The notes under the pieces are model-generated. The model did not search any database. It saw only the letters and a list, made by a program, of their open reading frames with translations, and was not told the origin of the DNA. From a virus (lineage: Duplodnaviria; Heunggongvirae; Uroviricota; Caudoviricetes): 33,213 bases of DNA. The stretch is from the IMG/VR virus record IMGVR_UViG_3300045988_101411. One strand, given 5' to 3'. This document shows positions 2,191 to 29,445 of the stretch, piece after piece (positions within the stretch are counted from its first letter, which is position 1; the number at the start of each line of letters is the position of its first letter). A program made the translations under genes and the position numbers.

Positions 2191-4638
2191 TTAACCGTCA
2201 TGCATCATGCTGGCACGGGCGCGCGCGCGTTTATCCCGCTCGTATTTTTCGAGCGCATCCTGTAACTGGCGGTCAAGCTGTGTCCCCGGCGCAGTACCAC
2301 CCGTCAGGCTGATGTGATATTCGTTTTTACTCTGGTCCACATAAGAGCGGCCAGCCGGTGCCGTAACCGGCTGATAAGCCTGATAGCCTGCATAAGAGCT
2401 GGACGCCGGAATATAACCACCGGTGCCATACGTGGCGGCATGAGCTCTGGCGGCGGTCTGGTCAAGTGTGTCTGACTCTTTGTTGATAACACCGAGTTTT
2501 TCCAGTACCCAGTCAATACCGCTGCACAGTTTGTTGAACGCATTAAGCGGCAGCATCAGCGCGTCAGCCAGTGCCTGCCCGAACATGACGCCCGTGTCAC
2601 GGCAACGGTTCAGCGCGTCCTGGGTGGCTTTGACCGGGGCAATCAGGTTTTTAAACCGCTGCCACGCGGCCTGTAACTTTTCGCCCAGCCAGTCAAACAC
2701 CGGCTTCAGTGGCGTAAACAGTTCCCCCACCGGCGCAAATGCCGCTTTCAGCCCTTCAACCACACCGCCAAAGAATGCGCTGACAGGCTCCCAGTATTTA
2801 CGGATAAGCAACGCCCCGGCGACAATGGCGGCCACCACAGCCACAATCGGCCAGCTAATCGCCCCGATGGCCGTCATAACAGCACTGCCAACCGTCGTGA
2901 AGATTGCCCCCATTGCGCCTGCTGCAGCGATGATGGCATTAATGCCGGTGATAACCGGCCAGGCTACAAGACCAATTGCACCGATGATGCCAATAAGCGC
3001 CAGTGCGCCACCGACAATAAGGCCGATGGTTGACGCCAGTGATTTGTTTTTCTGGATCCAGCCGTCGAGTTTTAACACATACTTTGTGGCCGTCTGCGTG
3101 AGATTACGCAGTGCGCCTTCCTGTTGGTCAAACAGGTCAGTCCCCACCGCCTCATAAGCAGACTGAAACTCCTTAAAGTCACCGCCGAGGTTATCCTGCA
3201 TGATTTTAACCAGCTCTTCCGTTTTACCGTCCGAGGCTTTCAGCGTGGCGGTCAGCTTATCCAGTTTTCCGCTTGCAGCCGCTGCCAGTAAAACGTTCGC
3301 TGATTTCAGGGCTTCCTCACCAAAAATGGTTTTAAGGTATTCCCCCTTCTGAGACGTTCCCAGCTTGTGTTTATCAAAGCTGGCCTGAATCTCTTTCAGA
3401 ATGGTGAACAACGGACGCATATTTCCCTTTTTGTCCGAGGTTTTAACGCCAAGCTCTTTGAGTGCTTCCCATGCTTTCCCTGTCGGAGCCTGTAATCGGG
3501 TGACAACGGCACTACTACCAGTACCCGCCATTGACCCCCTGATGTTATTGTCATGCAGCACACCTGTCATGGCCGCTGCCTGCTCAAGACTTACACCCGC
3601 CGTCCTCGCAACCGGCCCGAGGTAAGTCAGTGCATCACTGAGCCCCTGAAAATCAGCCGCCGACTTATTCATCGTTGCCGACAACACGTCGCCCACATGG
3701 CTGACATCATCATTTGACAGTTGAAAGGATGCCTTAGTCCCCAGCAACAGTTGCGCGTTTTCTTCCATCGACCGCTGATTCGCCAGTGCCATATTCAGCG
3801 TGACCGGCGTTGCCGCCTGAATAGCCGCAGCATCTCCACCCGCTTTCGCAATGATAATCTGCGCACCTGCCGCATCATCCGCCGAGGCGGCGGTATTATC
3901 GCCGAGCTGGCGCGCCTGCTTGCGTAGTGCAGCCATTTCGGCGGAGTCTTTTGCCACTCCGAGCACGGCCTGCAATTCTGAGTTTTTCTGCGCAAACTCA
4001 TAACCGGGCATCAGCAGCTTAACTCCGGCCATCGTTCCCGCCGCCGCAATCCCCACACCGGCAGCGCCCACTGAGGCCATATTTCCGGCCAGTTCCTTGC
4101 CGGCCTGATAACGCTGTTTGACTGCGTTAAGTTTTGCCTGTTGCGCACTGACACGCGCCAGCGCGTCACGCTGCCGGTTAAGCTGTGCGGTGGTTTCACT
4201 GATACGGTTTTTCAGTCCCTGCTCATCATGTGCAAGATTGCGGGTATTAATTCCCACAGCGGCCAGTTCCCGCTGCTGGCGTTTAACGGAATCCGTCAGG
4301 CGGTTATATTTCGCCTGTAAGTCCTCCGCCGCTCGCTTTGCTGATTCCAGCACTTTCGCCTGAGCACGGGTCGGACGTTCGGTGTTTTTAAACTGTGTGG
4401 CAAGGGCTTCGGCCTCCTGCCGTGCCTTTTCAAGTGCATGACCAGTCACGGCGAGCTGTGCACTGGTCTTGCGGAATCCCTCAATACGGGATGCGTGACC
4501 GTTCAGCTCGCGCAGTGATTTTTGTGTTTCCCGGATATCCCCCGACAGCGACTTACTCGCTGTGCGGATGGATTTAAACGGGCGGGATGCCTGGTCAACA
4601 GCCCTGAGCAATACCTGTAATTTTACATTGTTACTCAT
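2191..4638 (-). CDS. T: Tail tape measure protein T, 815 aa
   Basis: Long Ala/Gly-rich coiled-coil N-half and hydrophobic central block typical of tape measures; length matches P2 gpT; immediately downstream of E/E'. Confidence 0.9.
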   Translation of the reverse strand: MSNNVKLQVLLRAVDQASRPFKSIRTASKSLSGDIRETQKSLRELNGHASRIEGFRKTSAQLAVTGHALEKARQEAEALATQFKNTERPTRAQAKVLESAKRAAEDLQAKYNRLTDSVKRQQRELAAVGINTRNLAHDEQGLKNRISETTAQLNRQRDALARVSAQQAKLNAVKQRYQAGKELAGNMASVGAAGVGIAAAGTMAGVKLLMPGYEFAQKNSELQAVLGVAKDSAEMAALRKQARQLGDNTAASADDAAGAQIIIAKAGGDAAAIQAATPVTLNMALANQRSMEENAQLLLGTKASFQLSNDDVSHVGDVLSATMNKSAADFQGLSDALTYLGPVARTAGVSLEQAAAMTGVLHDNNIRGSMAGTGSSAVVTRLQAPTGKAWEALKELGVKTSDKKGNMRPLFTILKEIQASFDKHKLGTSQKGEYLKTIFGEEALKSANVLLAAAASGKLDKLTATLKASDGKTEELVKIMQDNLGGDFKEFQSAYEAVGTDLFDQQEGALRNLTQTATKYVLKLDGWIQKNKSLASTIGLIVGGALALIGIIGAIGLVAWPVITGINAIIAAAGAMGAIFTTVGSAVMTAIGAISWPIVAVVAAIVAGALLIRKYWEPVSAFFGGVVEGLKAAFAPVGELFTPLKPVFDWLGEKLQAAWQRFKNLIAPVKATQDALNRCRDTGVMFGQALADALMLPLNAFNKLCSGIDWVLEKLGVINKESDTLDQTAARAHAATYGTGGYIPASSSYAGYQAYQPVTAPAGRSYVDQSKNEYHISLTGGTAPGTQLDRQLQDALEKYERDKRARARASMMHDG

Positions 4639-23873: not shown

Positions 23874-25163
23874 CTACTTTGTAAAAAGAGGCCTATATTT
23901 TTCAAACAAGGAGGTTTCGGATGTATTAACATCAGTGGCAGGCTGCATCTCAGCATGTTGCTTTTGTAAACGCTTAAATCTATCAATTGAATCTTTAATT
24001 AACCAAGACATTGACACCATTTCTAAAGGAGTGCGAAGCATCATTTGCCATGACACCCCCCAAATCAATGAGCTACCAAATTCTTTAAATATCATCGAAT
24101 AGTCTTCACCATCGACAAAAACAAGCTCAAACCCTTCATTCAAAGCTATTTGTTTAAAACAATCCAAATCAAGAACACAGAGAATGGTTAACTCCCCATT
24201 TATAAAGTCACACAAATCACGCGCATCATTTATAAGATTAACAAATGGAGTTAAAGGAACCCACAATTGATTATTTTTATATTCATTCAAAAATATAGGT
24301 GCAATTTTCCTCCCTCTAAGATCCAACTGTGATAATGCTATTTCCAGATCACAGCCACGATTAGATACCACATAAAATCCATCTTCTAGCCTTACCCATG
24401 AAATTCCTTTTTTCCTGCATACATTCAGATGCTCATTAAATTCTTTTTTATATGTAACTTCTGAAAAACACAGTTCTTTCCTTAACACTAATGGCATCCC
24501 TCTAAAATCTTCAGCTTTATCTTCTGCTAAAAATTCAGCCAGTCTATTAAGGTTATTTTTTTGACGTTCAACACGATCATTTTTATTTTGACTTGATTTC
24601 ACCTCCACTAGTACTGGTGCACCTTCACCAAGTAAACAAACATCACCATGCCTCATACTCATTGTAATATCATTGAGTAACGTAGGAACACCAGCCTTGC
24701 AGGCCTTCTTCACCAATTCCCATTCTTCTTTTAAGCCATCCTTCCCTCCCATATAGCCTGCTGACTCCTTGGGACTGTAATCCACAACATTATAAAAAAA
24801 ATGCTTAATATCAAACTTATCCAAATACAAAAAAGCAACACTATCACCAAACATTTTGAAGATATATATTTTAAATTTCACATCATCAATAACCTGCTCA
24901 ACACTCTTAATATTTTCCTTAATAAGTTTAGATTGTTCTTTTTTTAAACCACCTTTTCTTTTTGTTGCCTTTAGTTCCCCTAAGAAAGACTTTAATCCTT
25001 TGATCATCCTTTCACTTCTAATTATATTCCTTATTATTTTGAACTGAAACGACAACAACAAATCTGTATTTTTTAGGTTTCCCTCTAATTTTACCAGGTC
25101 TTTTTTCAAATCAAACACTACCGAGTCATGCAATTTTCGACTCAATTCAGTCTTAAACTTCAT
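23874..25163 (-). CDS. Cargo gene 2 of the tin/old-hotspot cassette: 429-aa protein with PD-(D/E)xK-like nuclease signature; function unknown
   Basis: ATG 25161-25163 with GAGGGA Shine-Dalgarno; EEWELVKK (acidic helix) then RHGDVCLLGEGAPVLVEVKSS (D174, E187-x-K189; motif encoded at 24597-24644, verified by manual translation); no Walker A P-loop; strongly AT-rich. Confidence 0.85.
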   Translation of the reverse strand: MKFKTELSRKLHDSVVFDLKKDLVKLEGNLKNTDLLLSFQFKIIRNIIRSERMIKGLKSFLGELKATKRKGGLKKEQSKLIKENIKSVEQVIDDVKFKIYIFKMFGDSVAFLYLDKFDIKHFFYNVVDYSPKESAGYMGGKDGLKEEWELVKKACKAGVPTLLNDITMSMRHGDVCLLGEGAPVLVEVKSSQNKNDRVERQKNNLNRLAEFLAEDKAEDFRGMPLVLRKELCFSEVTYKKEFNEHLNVCRKKGISWVRLEDGFYVVSNRGCDLEIALSQLDLRGRKIAPIFLNEYKNNQLWVPLTPFVNLINDARDLCDFINGELTILCVLDLDCFKQIALNEGFELVFVDGEDYSMIFKEFGSSLIWGVSWQMMLRTPLEMVSMSWLIKDSIDRFKRLQKQHAEMQPATDVNTSETSLFEKYRPLFTK

Positions 25164-25275: not shown

Positions 25276-26007
25276 TTAGTTATCTAATACTGAAACGACT
25301 TCGCCCGTTCGGATGTCGACACGCGCAGCAATAGTCTGTTTAACTACTCCTCCATAAGCATTAGTGCCACGAAATGTGGTTTTCACAATGGCGTGCGGGT
25401 CTTTATTCAAAACCAAATGATATACCGTTGACACATGTTTATAAGATGAATCATCGTTCATATTATCTTTAATTAGTTTTTCCAATGGACGATAAGAACC
25501 ATCCCAACCACTAAAATTGCTCTGAAATGTATCAAGATTGATTTTATTGTTTAGTGAATTCGGGTCATTTTCATAATCATTAAAGCACCACCCAAGAACA
25601 TCACCGAGTTTCAACTCATCATCTTTGGTAAATGTATACTCACTCATGCAGGCATAAAATGCATCTGATGCGGTGACTGGCACTTTCTTAAAGTTAATGT
25701 AACTATTCACAATATCGTGTCGAGTCTTCTTTGGCTCGTTCCGATATTCCTTGAGTGTTTTTTCAGTATATTCGAATGTTTTTTGAGCCTGGTGTTCTGC
25801 TACGGTTGCTGTTTCAGTTTTAGCAACTGGCTGGCTTTTTTCTGTTGGGTAGAGTATTGAACCAATTATGCTCAATGCAAAACCACCTCCGAGATAAACC
25901 GCACTTGCACGTTTACGGTTTGGCATCCGCACCAGTGATGGCTTGATTAACCCGATGAAAAAAGCAACGAAAAAAGCGAGTGATAGAAAAGCGATTACAA
26001 TATCCAT
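25276..26007 (-). CDS. Cargo gene 1 of the tin/old-hotspot cassette: membrane protein with two N-terminal TM helices and a soluble C-terminal domain, about 243 aa; function unknown
   Basis: ATG 26005-26007 with AGGA Shine-Dalgarno (track ORF starts at an upstream GTG 26031); hydrophobic segments IVIAFLSLAFFVAFFIGLI and AVYLGGGFALSIIGSILY; co-oriented with the downstream 429-aa gene; AT-rich. Confidence 0.8.
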   Translation of the reverse strand: MDIVIAFLSLAFFVAFFIGLIKPSLVRMPNRKRASAVYLGGGFALSIIGSILYPTEKSQPVAKTETATVAEHQAQKTFEYTEKTLKEYRNEPKKTRHDIVNSYINFKKVPVTASDAFYACMSEYTFTKDDELKLGDVLGWCFNDYENDPNSLNNKINLDTFQSNFSGWDGSYRPLEKLIKDNMNDDSSYKHVSTVYHLVLNKDPHAIVKTTFRGTNAYGGVVKQTIAARVDIRTGEVVSVLDN

Positions 26008-26236
26008 AGCTATCCTTTTTGCATCATCCACATAAAAAATCGACCTTATGTTAGCAACAGGAAGCTTACTTTTGAATATTTGTAAGTTGTTAGCTTTAGC
26101 TCTCCGAGCTAACTCCTTTCAACCGTCAAAAACCAGCACCAACGCAGTAAAAATATGACTGTCAACTAACGCCTCGCTTCGCTCGTTGTTCAACCCCGCC
26201 AGCCCTGAAAACAAGTTTCACGACTGGCGGCGTTCT

Positions 26237-26443
26237 CTATCGTCTGCGTGGTGGTGGCGTAACTCTTGATTGACCGATATGGTTAAACCGCCCGTAATTA
26301 TCCCGGACTATTTCGGCACACCCGACTAGCTCATCTGGCGTCAGATTTTCGTTGACCATAATCCGCTGTAAACGCTGAACAATAGCCATCAGCTTGATAT
26401 TTTTAGTTTTATGGTGCGGTATCTCGCCTGGTATTCTGTGCAT
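26237..26443 (-). CDS. Small hypothetical protein (about 68 aa), translationally coupled to the upstream ASCH gene
   Basis: ATG overlaps the ASCH stop (TAATG at 26441-26445); no recognisable motif. Confidence 0.5.
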   Translation of the reverse strand: MHRIPGEIPHHKTKNIKLMAIVQRLQRIMVNENLTPDELVGCAEIVRDNYGRFNHIGQSRVTPPPRRR

Positions 26444-26895
26444 TATCCAAGCCACCCGTTTTGCTGTGCACGCTCCATCTGTTCATCTGAATAGTTCCAT
26501 GCTTCATCCGTGGCAACCATTGCACCGCCAGACATCCCCGTCTCTGGTTCATACATAACAGCAAGGCCGAGCTGATGCATAATTTCATGATTAATTCTGA
26601 ATACCAGACCACGCTCACTAAGTTCTTTCCAGTTCACAATCTCATATGCACCTGTATTAAGCAGCTCAATACTTAGCAAGACATAATCTTCCAGCCAGTC
26701 TGACAGGTCAGTAACATCTGTTATCCGGGCTTCAACCTTTCGCCCCGTATACACACCCTGCCCCCATTCATGCAAAATCAACGTGTCCCCGCGCTCATAA
26801 TTACGGTCATTTTTCCGAAACTCTGCGCGTTTCTTTCCTTCCAGCACAAGGTCGAAATATTTTGCGTGCAGCTTTACCTCGTGAATTTTTGCCAT
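26443..26895 (-). CDS. ASCH-domain protein (GxKxxExR motif) with a C-terminal HExxH motif, about 150 aa
   Basis: LEGKKRAEFR matches the ASCH hallmark GxKxxExR; NHEIMH contains HExxH; start ATG overlaps the A stop (TGATG) with GGAG Shine-Dalgarno. Confidence 0.75.
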   Translation of the reverse strand: MAKIHEVKLHAKYFDLVLEGKKRAEFRKNDRNYERGDTLILHEWGQGVYTGRKVEARITDVTDLSDWLEDYVLLSIELLNTGAYEIVNWKELSERGLVFRINHEIMHQLGLAVMYEPETGMSGGAMVATDEAWNYSDEQMERAQQNGWLG

Positions 26896-29180
26896 CATGT
26901 CCACTCCATTACTGTTGAAAATCCCGGCCATTCATCAGCGACCGGATACGTGAATTTTTTCCCGTCATAATTTACGGTTGCCCCACGCGCCAGCGCCTCA
27001 AGCTCCCATCGCTGCGGCCTGATACTATTCTGAGCAAGGTCAACGCGGATACGGGTAATTTGCATTCTTTCCGACCGGGTCAGTCTGGCCGATGGTGCAA
27101 TTTCATGTGGTTTTAACGGGCTTCCGTTTCTTTGCTGACGGTTTGGCGTTCTCAGGTCGTGTTTTAATGCGCCCCTGAGCGCCCTCACGACCTCCGGTTC
27201 ATTCCATTCAATAACACCGTTATCAACCAGATTAAGCACTGCTGCGGCGTGCTCAGAAGGTGTGGGAGCCGGTAACGAAGCATCACCACCAGTGAGCTTT
27301 CCACAGTTATTGACAGGACTCCGAGGCGCGGCGATGCCGCTTTTTAAAGTCAAAGGCTCAACGACCGGCACTTTCGGAACAATGCGCCAGTCCGTCGTTC
27401 TGGTGATATGAATATGACGCGCGCCGAGATGCGGCGCGTAAATGCCGACCACTCTCTCGACTTCTTCCTCATACTCGTTAACGTCATCCGACGGGCTACG
27501 GGCGACCCTGACAGTCTGACAATCGCGCGGGACATTTGCCCCACCCTGCGCGCTGATATACAGCGCAAAATCGCCACTGTCTGCGGCAGCGCGTGCAGCC
27601 TCGACGCGTTCGTCAAACTCATCAGCAATGCTGACGCCGCGAGGCAATTTGCGTAGTTCACGGTAAGCCCCCATTGTCGGCAGGCCAACCGTTTTAAATT
27701 GCGGAATGCGCCACGTTGACGCCCATGCGGTAACAGCCGCGGCAGTGTCTTTCAGCGGCCTGCCGGTATCGTTATCGAGCTGACCATCCAGTGCATAGCC
27801 GTCGATGTTTTTTGAAATGTATTTCGCGATATATCCCGCAGCACCGCCCCGGTTAAGGTGTTTTGCCTGAAAACGGTTTCGCGCAGCTCCTCTTTCGTCT
27901 CCATCCTCTTTGAGCGCGTAGCGACGCATGATTTCGATAATCTGGTTACGCTGGCGTGGATTACAAAAAAGCATCATATGCCAGTGCGGCGTTCCGTCGT
28001 GGTGTGGCTCGACGACACGCAAACCGTAGACCTGTAAATCATTATCCTTGAATGCCGTGCGCATCAGGCTCCAGATGCGGCAGAGATAACGCTGCGCATC
28101 CTTTGGATTAAATGCCTCATCGTTCCAGCCGTGATTAAGCTGAACGGTTTTACTTTCGCCTTTTCTGACCTGACGTGTCGGGTGATACTTTGACGGCGCG
28201 GTCAGCGTGATAAACATCCCCACATCACCCTCTGCGGCGGCGTAACGCTCAATACCGGCAATGGTGTTCATCAGCTCCATCCGGCGAATTTCAGGATTAG
28301 AAATACTGCCCATCACCTTACTGATAAGGTCGATACGCTCGCCGGTTTCCCTGTTTTCAAGGTCACACGATTTAAGAAATTCCAGATTTGCCTGGCGGCG
28401 CGCACGCACATCACGAATGGCGTGTTTACTGGCATAAGGAGAACGGTCTTTATTGACCTCCCCGACAGCTATCAGTAACGCTTCATGCCAGCGCATACGC
28501 TGGCCTTTAAGCTGATGAGTCCACCACTCATCGTTAAACAGACGGGCAATTGCAGAATATGCCTGCCTCGTGGTCATCTGTCCTTTACGGTATTTTTTCC
28601 AGTAAAGCGGGGAAATATTGAAAGCACGTGCAGCGCCAGCAACATGACCATAGAGGTGAGCCTGCGCCTCATCCGTAAACAGCGATTCTTTCTCGCCATG
28701 CGCATCCACCCAGGCATCGCAGAGTTCCTCATACATCATGAAAAGCTGTGATGAGATACGGGCGGCAAACTTTTTCAGCTCCTTGTCATTCATCCCCGGC
28801 AGGCGCGCATACTGGTCGCGCTCTGCCAGAAACAGCAACGACGCGTCGGTGTTCATTTCATGGCGCTGATTCACGCGCTCAATGCGCGGCCATAAACGAC
28901 GCTGAAAAGTGGATGTGAGGAAATAAAACCCGTGTACCGGGCTTTTATTGCGCCGGATGTAGTCATAGCGTGAAGTAAACAGCGAGCGCAAAAAGTAAGG
29001 CAGGCGGTTAATCGTGGATAAAACACCTTGCACCTGACGCATCTCATCACGTGTAAGGGGTCTTTCGCGCCCGACAGCCTCGCGTGGCGCGTTCCATGCA
29101 TAAGCACCGGCAAACGTCTTACCGGTGCCTGCGGCAAATGCTGACGGAGGGACAAAACGCCCGGAGGCTTTAACGGCCAT
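26895..29180 (-). CDS. A: Replication initiation protein A (rolling-circle nickase), 761 aa
   Basis: Start MAVKASGRFVPP... at ATG 29178-29180 (track ORF extends to a TTG); length matches P2 A; position after orf83. Confidence 0.88.
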   Translation of the reverse strand: MAVKASGRFVPPSAFAAGTGKTFAGAYAWNAPREAVGRERPLTRDEMRQVQGVLSTINRLPYFLRSLFTSRYDYIRRNKSPVHGFYFLTSTFQRRLWPRIERVNQRHEMNTDASLLFLAERDQYARLPGMNDKELKKFAARISSQLFMMYEELCDAWVDAHGEKESLFTDEAQAHLYGHVAGAARAFNISPLYWKKYRKGQMTTRQAYSAIARLFNDEWWTHQLKGQRMRWHEALLIAVGEVNKDRSPYASKHAIRDVRARRQANLEFLKSCDLENRETGERIDLISKVMGSISNPEIRRMELMNTIAGIERYAAAEGDVGMFITLTAPSKYHPTRQVRKGESKTVQLNHGWNDEAFNPKDAQRYLCRIWSLMRTAFKDNDLQVYGLRVVEPHHDGTPHWHMMLFCNPRQRNQIIEIMRRYALKEDGDERGAARNRFQAKHLNRGGAAGYIAKYISKNIDGYALDGQLDNDTGRPLKDTAAAVTAWASTWRIPQFKTVGLPTMGAYRELRKLPRGVSIADEFDERVEAARAAADSGDFALYISAQGGANVPRDCQTVRVARSPSDDVNEYEEEVERVVGIYAPHLGARHIHITRTTDWRIVPKVPVVEPLTLKSGIAAPRSPVNNCGKLTGGDASLPAPTPSEHAAAVLNLVDNGVIEWNEPEVVRALRGALKHDLRTPNRQQRNGSPLKPHEIAPSARLTRSERMQITRIRVDLAQNSIRPQRWELEALARGATVNYDGKKFTYPVADEWPGFSTVMEWT

Positions 29181-29445
29181 ATGAGCCAAAAGCCTCTGAA
29201 CAACGCTTGCTGAGTTGCTCAACCTGCGCGTTTAAATCAGCAAAAGACTTTGCGCTTCCGGTCAGAATATCGTGATGCATCAGGCCGGAAACGAGCTGGC
29301 TTAATTTCGGGTAATAACCAACCACCGACAGCCATTCCTGACCGGCGTTTTTACCGCTTTCCGCTCTCTTTTTCTCGTGGAGAATAAACTGAAAGCTGTC
29401 ACTGGTAACGACATAACGTCCGCCAATTTCAATACGAATACTCAT
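29170..29445 (-). CDS. Small early protein (P2 orf83 position), 91 aa
   Basis: ATG with GGAG Shine-Dalgarno; synteny. Confidence 0.7.
   Translation of the reverse strand: MSIRIEIGGRYVVTSDSFQFILHEKKRAESGKNAGQEWLSVVGYYPKLSQLVSGLMHHDILTGSAKSFADLNAQVEQLSKRCSEAFGSYGR

Follow-up and report, generated by a model that had tools for sequence, protein, structure and literature searches.

In phage P2 the replication gene A is followed at once, with an overlap of stop and start codons, by orf91 (NC_001895, 3817-4146), whose product has 109 aa in RefSeq (NP_046796). In phage Wphi (NC_005056, 3662-4177) the corresponding stretch is annotated as two genes, 'orf91' (93 aa) and 'gp92' (64 aa; UniProt Q7Y4B6). 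The literature that mentions orf91 lists it as a gene of unknown function and once, in a methods note on qPCR, as 'an essential protein', a statement made there without data (bioRxiv 10.1101/2025.08.28.672839). Genes of this kind are already catalogued and form a widely annotated accessory family, found under the names DUF3850 domain-containing protein, ASCH domain protein and orf91. Among proteins with the ASCH fold, YqfB of E. coli is an N4-acetylcytidine amidohydrolase (PDB 9KYF) with the catalytic triad Lys21-Thr24-Glu74; YqfB-type ASCH proteins hydrolyse ac4C and show no RNA binding (PMC9599836). An ASCH protein of Zymomonas is described as nucleic-acid-binding and as promoting RNA cleavage. 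In the PUA-Cal-HAD defence system, free modified nucleotides are the ligands of PUA/ASCH-clan domains (bioRxiv 10.64898/2026.01.15.699771). Our literature search returned no paper that mentions DUF7415, the second domain of the protein described below, and the papers on DUF3850 give only notes on fusions and neighbourhoods.

The window analysed here (33,213 nt of a Caudoviricetes virus, IMG/VR record IMGVR_UViG_3300045988_101411) carries on its minus strand an ORF with its stop codon at 26443-26445 and two adjacent starts, as read from the ORF list and the sequence; ATG 26898 gives a protein of 151 aa and ATG 26895 one of 150 aa. The gene (26443-26898, minus strand; ORF list, PHROG 1812, Pfam) encodes an ASCH (DUF3850) domain followed by DUF7415, and its product matches PHROG 1812 from end to end (5.6e-82). 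Around the start the sequence reads GGAG-TGGAC-ATG-ATG-G. The Shine-Dalgarno element GGAG (26904-26907, minus) thus lies 5 nt upstream of ATG 26898 and within the 3' end of gene A, the TGA stop of which (26895-26897, minus) overlaps both candidate ATGs (ATGATG). In the allele of NC_070904 ATA replaces the first ATG, which leaves the second (26895) as the only one kept in all alleles; the ORF at 26443-26895 of the original prediction therefore begins at the one start common to all of them. At the other end, the TAA of the gene overlaps the ATG of a 68-aa ORF (26237-26443, minus; ORF list, PHROG 11386) in the sequence TAATG (26441-26445); this ORF corresponds to part of Wphi 'gp92'. The two overlaps indicate that translational coupling is real on both sides, to A and to the 68-aa ORF, as had been claimed for this gene.

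The upstream partner in the early operon is replication gene A (P2 gpA, the rolling-circle initiator; 26895-29180, minus), for which the start at 29180 is inferred from annotated homologues of 2286 nt, the open frame itself reaching to a TTG at 29222. Two low-GC cargo genes lie between cos and the 68-aa ORF, in the A-to-cos hotspot of P2: one for a 429-aa protein (23874-25163, minus; PHROG 14906) and one for a 251-aa protein with hydrophobic N-terminal segments (25276-26031, minus; PHROG 3403). Neither cargo protein has a Pfam match. The GC content is 0.45-0.49 in the ASCH-DUF7415 gene, 0.50-0.59 in A and 0.28-0.42 in the two cargo genes. In a promoter and terminator scan from A to the cargo nothing exceeds the shuffle expectation, Rfam identifies no RNA family in or near the ASCH-DUF7415 gene, and PADLOC and NCBIfam give no match for this gene, the 68-aa ORF or either cargo gene. 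At the far end of the window a CyaR/RyeE sRNA is found at 44-129 on the plus strand (RF00112, 100.7 bits); the P2-like prophage adjoins cyaR.

There is good support for regarding this gene as P2 'orf91' in its intact, full-length state and the P2 reference as the outlier. P2 Orf91 is homologous to the protein here over aa 1-75 alone, where the two are 97% identical. After codon 75 (26673/26674, minus, from protein and DNA alignments), which is also the domain boundary, P2 orf91 reads past the ASCH barrel into unrelated sequence toward tin and old, the cargo that starts here in P2, so that only a remnant cut short by cargo is left. In megablast the match to P2 stops at nt 224 of the gene, and some E. 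coli genomes break similarly, at nt 231. The remark in the original prediction that the gene is longer than P2 orf91 was correct, with 150/151 aa against 109 aa annotated and 75 homologous. Its description as abutting the cargo hotspot holds in a different form: in the window the 68-aa ORF intervenes before the low-GC cargo, which starts near 26164, and in P2 the junction is inside the gene itself. The two short Wphi products result from several 1-nt insertions; these are seen in no other allele and are therefore most likely sequencing errors, which would most likely have broken the reading frames of a single ASCH-DUF7415 gene and of the 68-aa ORF.

Among 88 phage records with a match to the 3' end of A, the ASCH-DUF7415 gene is present in 27. 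In 25 of the carriers, including L-413C, vB_YpM_50, P37, S164 and P22H4, it has the full form of 150-151 aa at 94-98.5% DNA identity and always lies directly after A; the two exceptions are the two P2 reference copies. In about 30 of 60 sampled records an identity of 92-98% ends where A ends. Phages pro147, R18C and fiAA91-ss, whose A is 92-98% identical, lack the gene, and A is followed there by reverse-transcriptase, Fic or Cdt cargo; since A leads straight to cargo in these phages, the ASCH-DUF7415 gene is dispensable. The suggestion that it may be part of the variable region is borne out by this distribution, and the label 'essential' given to P2 orf91 in the preprint conflicts with the absence of the gene from R18C, fiAA91-ss and pro147. 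A match occurs in 400 of 5426 complete E. coli genomes, in 343 of these over at least 80% of the gene plus the 68-aa ORF, and E. coli NZ_CP151026.1 matches the ASCH-DUF7415 gene at 100% DNA identity. Homologues in Enterobacter prophages (54% identity) lie 6 nt after a replication gene of the A family (Pfam Phage_GPA); because position is kept at this identity, the link to the end of the early operon is older than the E. coli lineage. Values of dN/dS between alleles are 0.06-0.43, resting on 1-12 substitutions, with the L-413C comparison left out. E. coli genomes also contain chimeric ORFs (P0007, P0030, P0031, P0027, P0041, P0044). The Cox::DUF7415 and ASCH::tail-protein ORFs were rejected as real architectures, since their make-up suggests internal deletion during the decay of P2-like prophages.

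The N-terminal domain (aa 5-77; 26668-26886, minus; Pfam) is a minimal ASCH/PUA-like β-barrel of about 80 residues. DUF3850 (PF12961) is its best-fitting family, at 65.4 bits against a cut-off of 22.9 and over profile positions 1-77 of 77; ASCH itself (PF04266, PUA-like clan) matches aa 9-74 with 44.0 bits against a cut-off of 21.2 (E 3.8e-11). The octapeptide GKKRAEFR (aa 21-28 in the 151-aa numbering; 26815-26838, minus), from which the ASCH domain had been predicted through its GxKxxExR pattern, falls within both of these significant matches, and the domain has the PUA-like β-barrel fold expected of the family. The pattern arises in 0.46% of shuffles of the protein. K23 and R28 never vary within the fused DUF3850-DUF7415 subfamily, and the K, E and R of the octapeptide align with those of PDB 3IUW. 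By analogy with other ASCH, YTH and EVE/PUA-like proteins, the cleft at GxKxxExR most likely holds single-stranded nucleic acid or a (modified) nucleotide. The triad of YqfB is not found, since GKKRAEFR contains neither Thr nor Ser and Glu26 stands at the position of Thr24, in a register taken from motif alignment, not structural superposition, with the triad as in PMC9599836; Glu in place of the nucleophile makes YqfB-type chemistry unlikely for this protein. The connection that had been drawn from ASCH to the recognition of modified nucleic acids and to phage-phage conflict is speculation.

The C-terminal half belongs to a separate Pfam family, DUF7415 (PF24187; 26461-26640, minus), with a score of 54 bits where the cut-off is 27. 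Pfam aligns aa 87-129, and the modelled fold, a small α/β module of about 60 residues, extends to about aa 146. The domain is confined to phages and prophages. The modelled C-terminal domain has no fold match in the PDB, a PDB profile search with DUF7415 gave no match, and in BFVD the domain matches only DUF7415 phage proteins. An exhaustive HMMER search with aa 80-151 over 1.84 billion representative proteins identified 184 family members at E ≤ 0.001, and 213 distinct DUF7415 domain sequences were aligned for counts of conservation. G97, L98, I102, G111, S123 and D131 are near-invariant across these homologues and the protein here matches these columns; N103 is conserved in 207 of the 213, H108 in 204 and E105 in 182 (85-97%). 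Column conservation in the 213 homologues defines the family motif as GLxxRINxE[IV][LM]HPLGLA.

It is within this motif that the sequence HEIMH lies (aa 104-108 in the 151-aa numbering; 26575-26589, minus; column counts), which had been read as a zincin-like HExxH in the C-terminal half of an ASCH protein. The pattern is present as described, in DUF7415 and not in ASCH. Its first histidine is poorly conserved: the H104 column holds H in 68 of 213 sequences (32%), with R (57), K (28), T (19) and N (16) among the replacements. The HExxH form is restricted to the fused Enterobacterales DUF3850-DUF7415 subfamily, where HEIMH is kept down to 47% identity. HExxH occurs in 1.4% of shuffles of the protein, and a second instance exists in the long open frames of the window. 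A zincin site would have HExxH with both His and the Glu conserved, in a zincin fold with a third metal ligand downstream; here HExxH is present, the first His varies, and neither the fold nor the third ligand is seen. Lack of conservation of the motif among homologues was the finding that the original prediction itself had named as refuting the zincin reading, which we reject on this ground together with the missing fold match.

DUF7415 is common among phages. A tblastn search with a stand-alone DUF7415 protein (P0082) matched 832 of 50,697 phage records, T5 included, and every one of the matches listed is annotated as hypothetical. Stand-alone proteins of 53-90 aa occur in T4-like, T5-like and other phages, and the domain is also found fused to dATP/dGTP pyrophosphohydrolase (PF04447, three proteins), thymidylate kinase, an Rv2179c-like 3'-5' exonuclease (DEDDh) and DUF3850. 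In T4-like Klebsiella phages DUF7415 lies between nrdD and nrdG, in other P2-like elements directly after Toprim primase genes, and in Aeromonas phage phiO18P after rep. In a 186-like prophage it is found upstream of A, flanked by a DksA/TraR-type zinc-finger gene and a Dam methyltransferase; in another element it adjoins ribonucleotide reductase genes and a Lockin-family (PF26760) gene, and further sites are after a C5 DNA methyltransferase and after a helicase. The early operon of an Elveevirus includes a gene with DUF3850 only. In T5 (AY543070, 3395-4225) T5.106 and T5.107 have two DUF7415 repeats each (114 and 105 bits); T5.105, a HAD_SAK_2 gene, and T5.102, a Sir2-like gene, are their neighbours, and the origin-binding protein T5.108 is encoded downstream of them. 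T5.106, labelled 'similar to ORF91', was considered as a case of an ASCH neighbour of DUF7415 and rejected, because Pfam puts the similarity in DUF7415 itself. As a side observation, DUF7415 stands beside a DNA methyltransferase, Dam-type D12 in two cases and C5 in one, in three unrelated elements (L020 5001-6257, L022 5001-6286 and L026 1887-3502); this adjacency may or may not be anything beyond the usual make-up of early operons.

A possible tie between DUF7415 and the 68-aa ORF comes from a metagenomic protein (P0068; L016 2597-3163) that consists of a segment resembling the 68-aa ORF, a sub-threshold ClpX-type zinc ribbon and DUF7415. The segment is 34% identical to the 68-aa ORF over 50 aa (pairwise E 4e-8), and the gene lies 18 nt downstream of a Toprim/DUF5906 primase-helicase gene. 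This protein may be a Rosetta stone connecting the 68-aa ORF with DUF7415. In pro147 (4201-4419) a 72-aa ORF after A is 60% identical to the 68-aa ORF over 30 aa; as pro147 keeps this remnant and has no ASCH gene, the two genes can be lost separately.

That the gene encodes a dispensable accessory protein of two domains, placed last in the P2-like early operon and translated together with gpA through the coupling described above, is well supported. On balance we think it probable that its ASCH domain binds nucleic acid or nucleotide and that its DUF7415 domain serves as an adaptor. The ASCH barrel would bind single-stranded nucleic acid or a (modified) nucleotide, and DUF7415 would most likely be a module for self-association or for docking onto a partner, a role suggested by the tandem repeats of T5, the fusions to complete nucleotide enzymes and the replication-module contexts. 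By pairing the ASCH barrel or tethering it, DUF7415 might bring it to nucleic-acid or nucleotide transactions at the onset of phage replication, and the co-translated 68-aa protein may act together with it. Several observations weigh against this reading. The invariant polar residues R101, N103, E105, H108, S123 and D131 would fit a ligand, metal or catalytic site equally well or better; the contexts of DUF7415 share a theme (replication, nucleotide metabolism) and no single conserved neighbour. The link to the 68-aa ORF comes from one contig of a metagenome, and neither L-413C nor the Enterobacter homologues have the ORF. The preprint's label of P2 orf91 as 'essential', given without data, also stands against a non-essential role.

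The least unlikely alternative is a function in counter-defence, in which the ASCH pocket would bind or hydrolyse a modified nucleotide or signal (for instance an N4-acylated cytidine, or a methylated dNMP as danger signal) and DUF7415 would oligomerise or provide a second site. Early expression and the position at the edge of the A-to-cos cargo hotspot agree with it, as do nucleotide binding by the PUA/ASCH clan in PUA-Cal-HAD, ac4C hydrolysis by YqfB-type ASCH proteins (PMC9599836), the fusions of DUF7415 to nucleotide pyrophosphohydrolases and its neighbours of the Lockin family and the DNA methyltransferases. However, Glu at the position of the Thr24 nucleophile speaks against YqfB-type chemistry, the gene shows no co-occurrence link to any defence system and it has no match in PADLOC, a library of defence models, not of anti-defence. 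We consider this alternative unlikely.

More doubtful still is the idea that DUF7415 is itself a small ligand-binding, metal-binding or catalytic unit acting on nucleotides, for example through an ExxH...D site within or between subunits. The near-invariant polar set named above is unusually dense for a domain of this size, and the stand-alone proteins of 53-90 aa, the tandem repeats of T5 and the neighbourhoods in nucleotide metabolism would suit a self-sufficient unit. Against it, the domain resembles no solved enzyme or binding fold and its fusion partners are already complete enzymes. Equally doubtful is a broader proposal with two parts: that DUF7415 is an unrecognised phage-specific fold which binds a nucleotide or metal, or docks on a conserved replication or nucleotide-supply factor, and that the ASCH-DUF7415 and 68-aa proteins form an early counter-defence or nucleotide-signal factor gained and lost at the edge of the hotspot. 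If this broader proposal were true, the P2 truncation would be a natural loss-of-function allele.

We give a low probability to a role in post-transcriptional regulation by RNA binding, with the early transcript or host RNA as target. PHROG 986 ('RNA-binding protein') matches aa 1-85 at 8.8e-43, the Zymomonas protein is described as promoting RNA cleavage, and DUF7415 is fused to the Rv2179c-like exoribonuclease and adjoins the HAD_SAK_2 gene, of RNA-repair type, in T5. The 'RNA-binding' label, which databases apply to related DUF3850 families, is derived from homology, however, YqfB-type ASCH proteins do not bind RNA (PMC9599836) and Rfam finds no RNA element nearby. Lower again is the probability that the protein belongs to the universally conserved backbone and has a role essential for replication together with gpA. 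The start that overlaps the A stop, the position after A retained at 54% identity, the preprint's label and the DUF3850-only and DUF7415-only genes in early operons of other Peduoviridae would be consistent with such a role, but the gene is absent from pro147, R18C, fiAA91-ss and about half of the sampled records in spite of a near-identical A, and P2 retains only the first 75 codons before an unrelated tail. Least probable of all, and barely tenable, is a zincin-like metallohydrolase (a protease, or a hydrolase, acting on modified nucleic acid or on a bound protein) targeted by ASCH, for although HEIMH is kept within the fused subfamily and E105 and H108 are conserved family-wide, the first His is replaced by R or K in 85 sequences, some 60 residues offer no region for a third ligand or a Met-turn, and an HExxH is within chance for a window of such size.

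Returning to the accessory two-domain protein that we favour, the outcome is mostly a clean-up of annotation. The HExxH is a red herring, the gene is intact P2 orf91, the P2 allele is a cargo-truncated remnant, and Wphi orf91 and gp92 are most likely frameshift artefacts. Of further use are the corrected view of orf91 in P2 and Wphi and a first map of the contexts of DUF7415, a widespread domain that recurs in replication and nucleotide-metabolism modules and in fusions to nucleotide enzymes. A cheap experiment on a protein this small might reveal what a common phage domain does.

Set against known systems, the locus has only the five-residue helix pattern HEIMH in common with the zincin metalloproteases; unlike zincins, DUF7415 has an unconserved first His, no third-ligand region, no zincin fold and a length of about 60 residues. 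YqfB shares the ASCH fold with the N-terminal domain, at a sequence identity of 17%. The structure 3IUW (Enterococcus faecalis NP_814290.1, an 'activating signal cointegrator' solved by structural genomics) is a DUF3850 protein like the N-terminal domain here, but is single-domain and lacks DUF7415. Conversely, T5.106, T5.107 and the stand-alone ORFs of T4-like Klebsiella phages have the same DUF7415 motif RINxE[IV][LM]HPLGLA and lie among early, replication and nucleotide-metabolism genes, whereas they lack ASCH, usually lack the first His of HExxH and are annotated as hypothetical. P2 Orf91 occupies the same place right after A, with the same overlap of stop and start, and differs past codon 75, where its sequence is unrelated and contains no DUF7415. 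The closest counterpart is orf91 of Yersinia phage L-413C (NP_839888), which encodes the same 150-aa two-domain protein after A, at about 90% identity.
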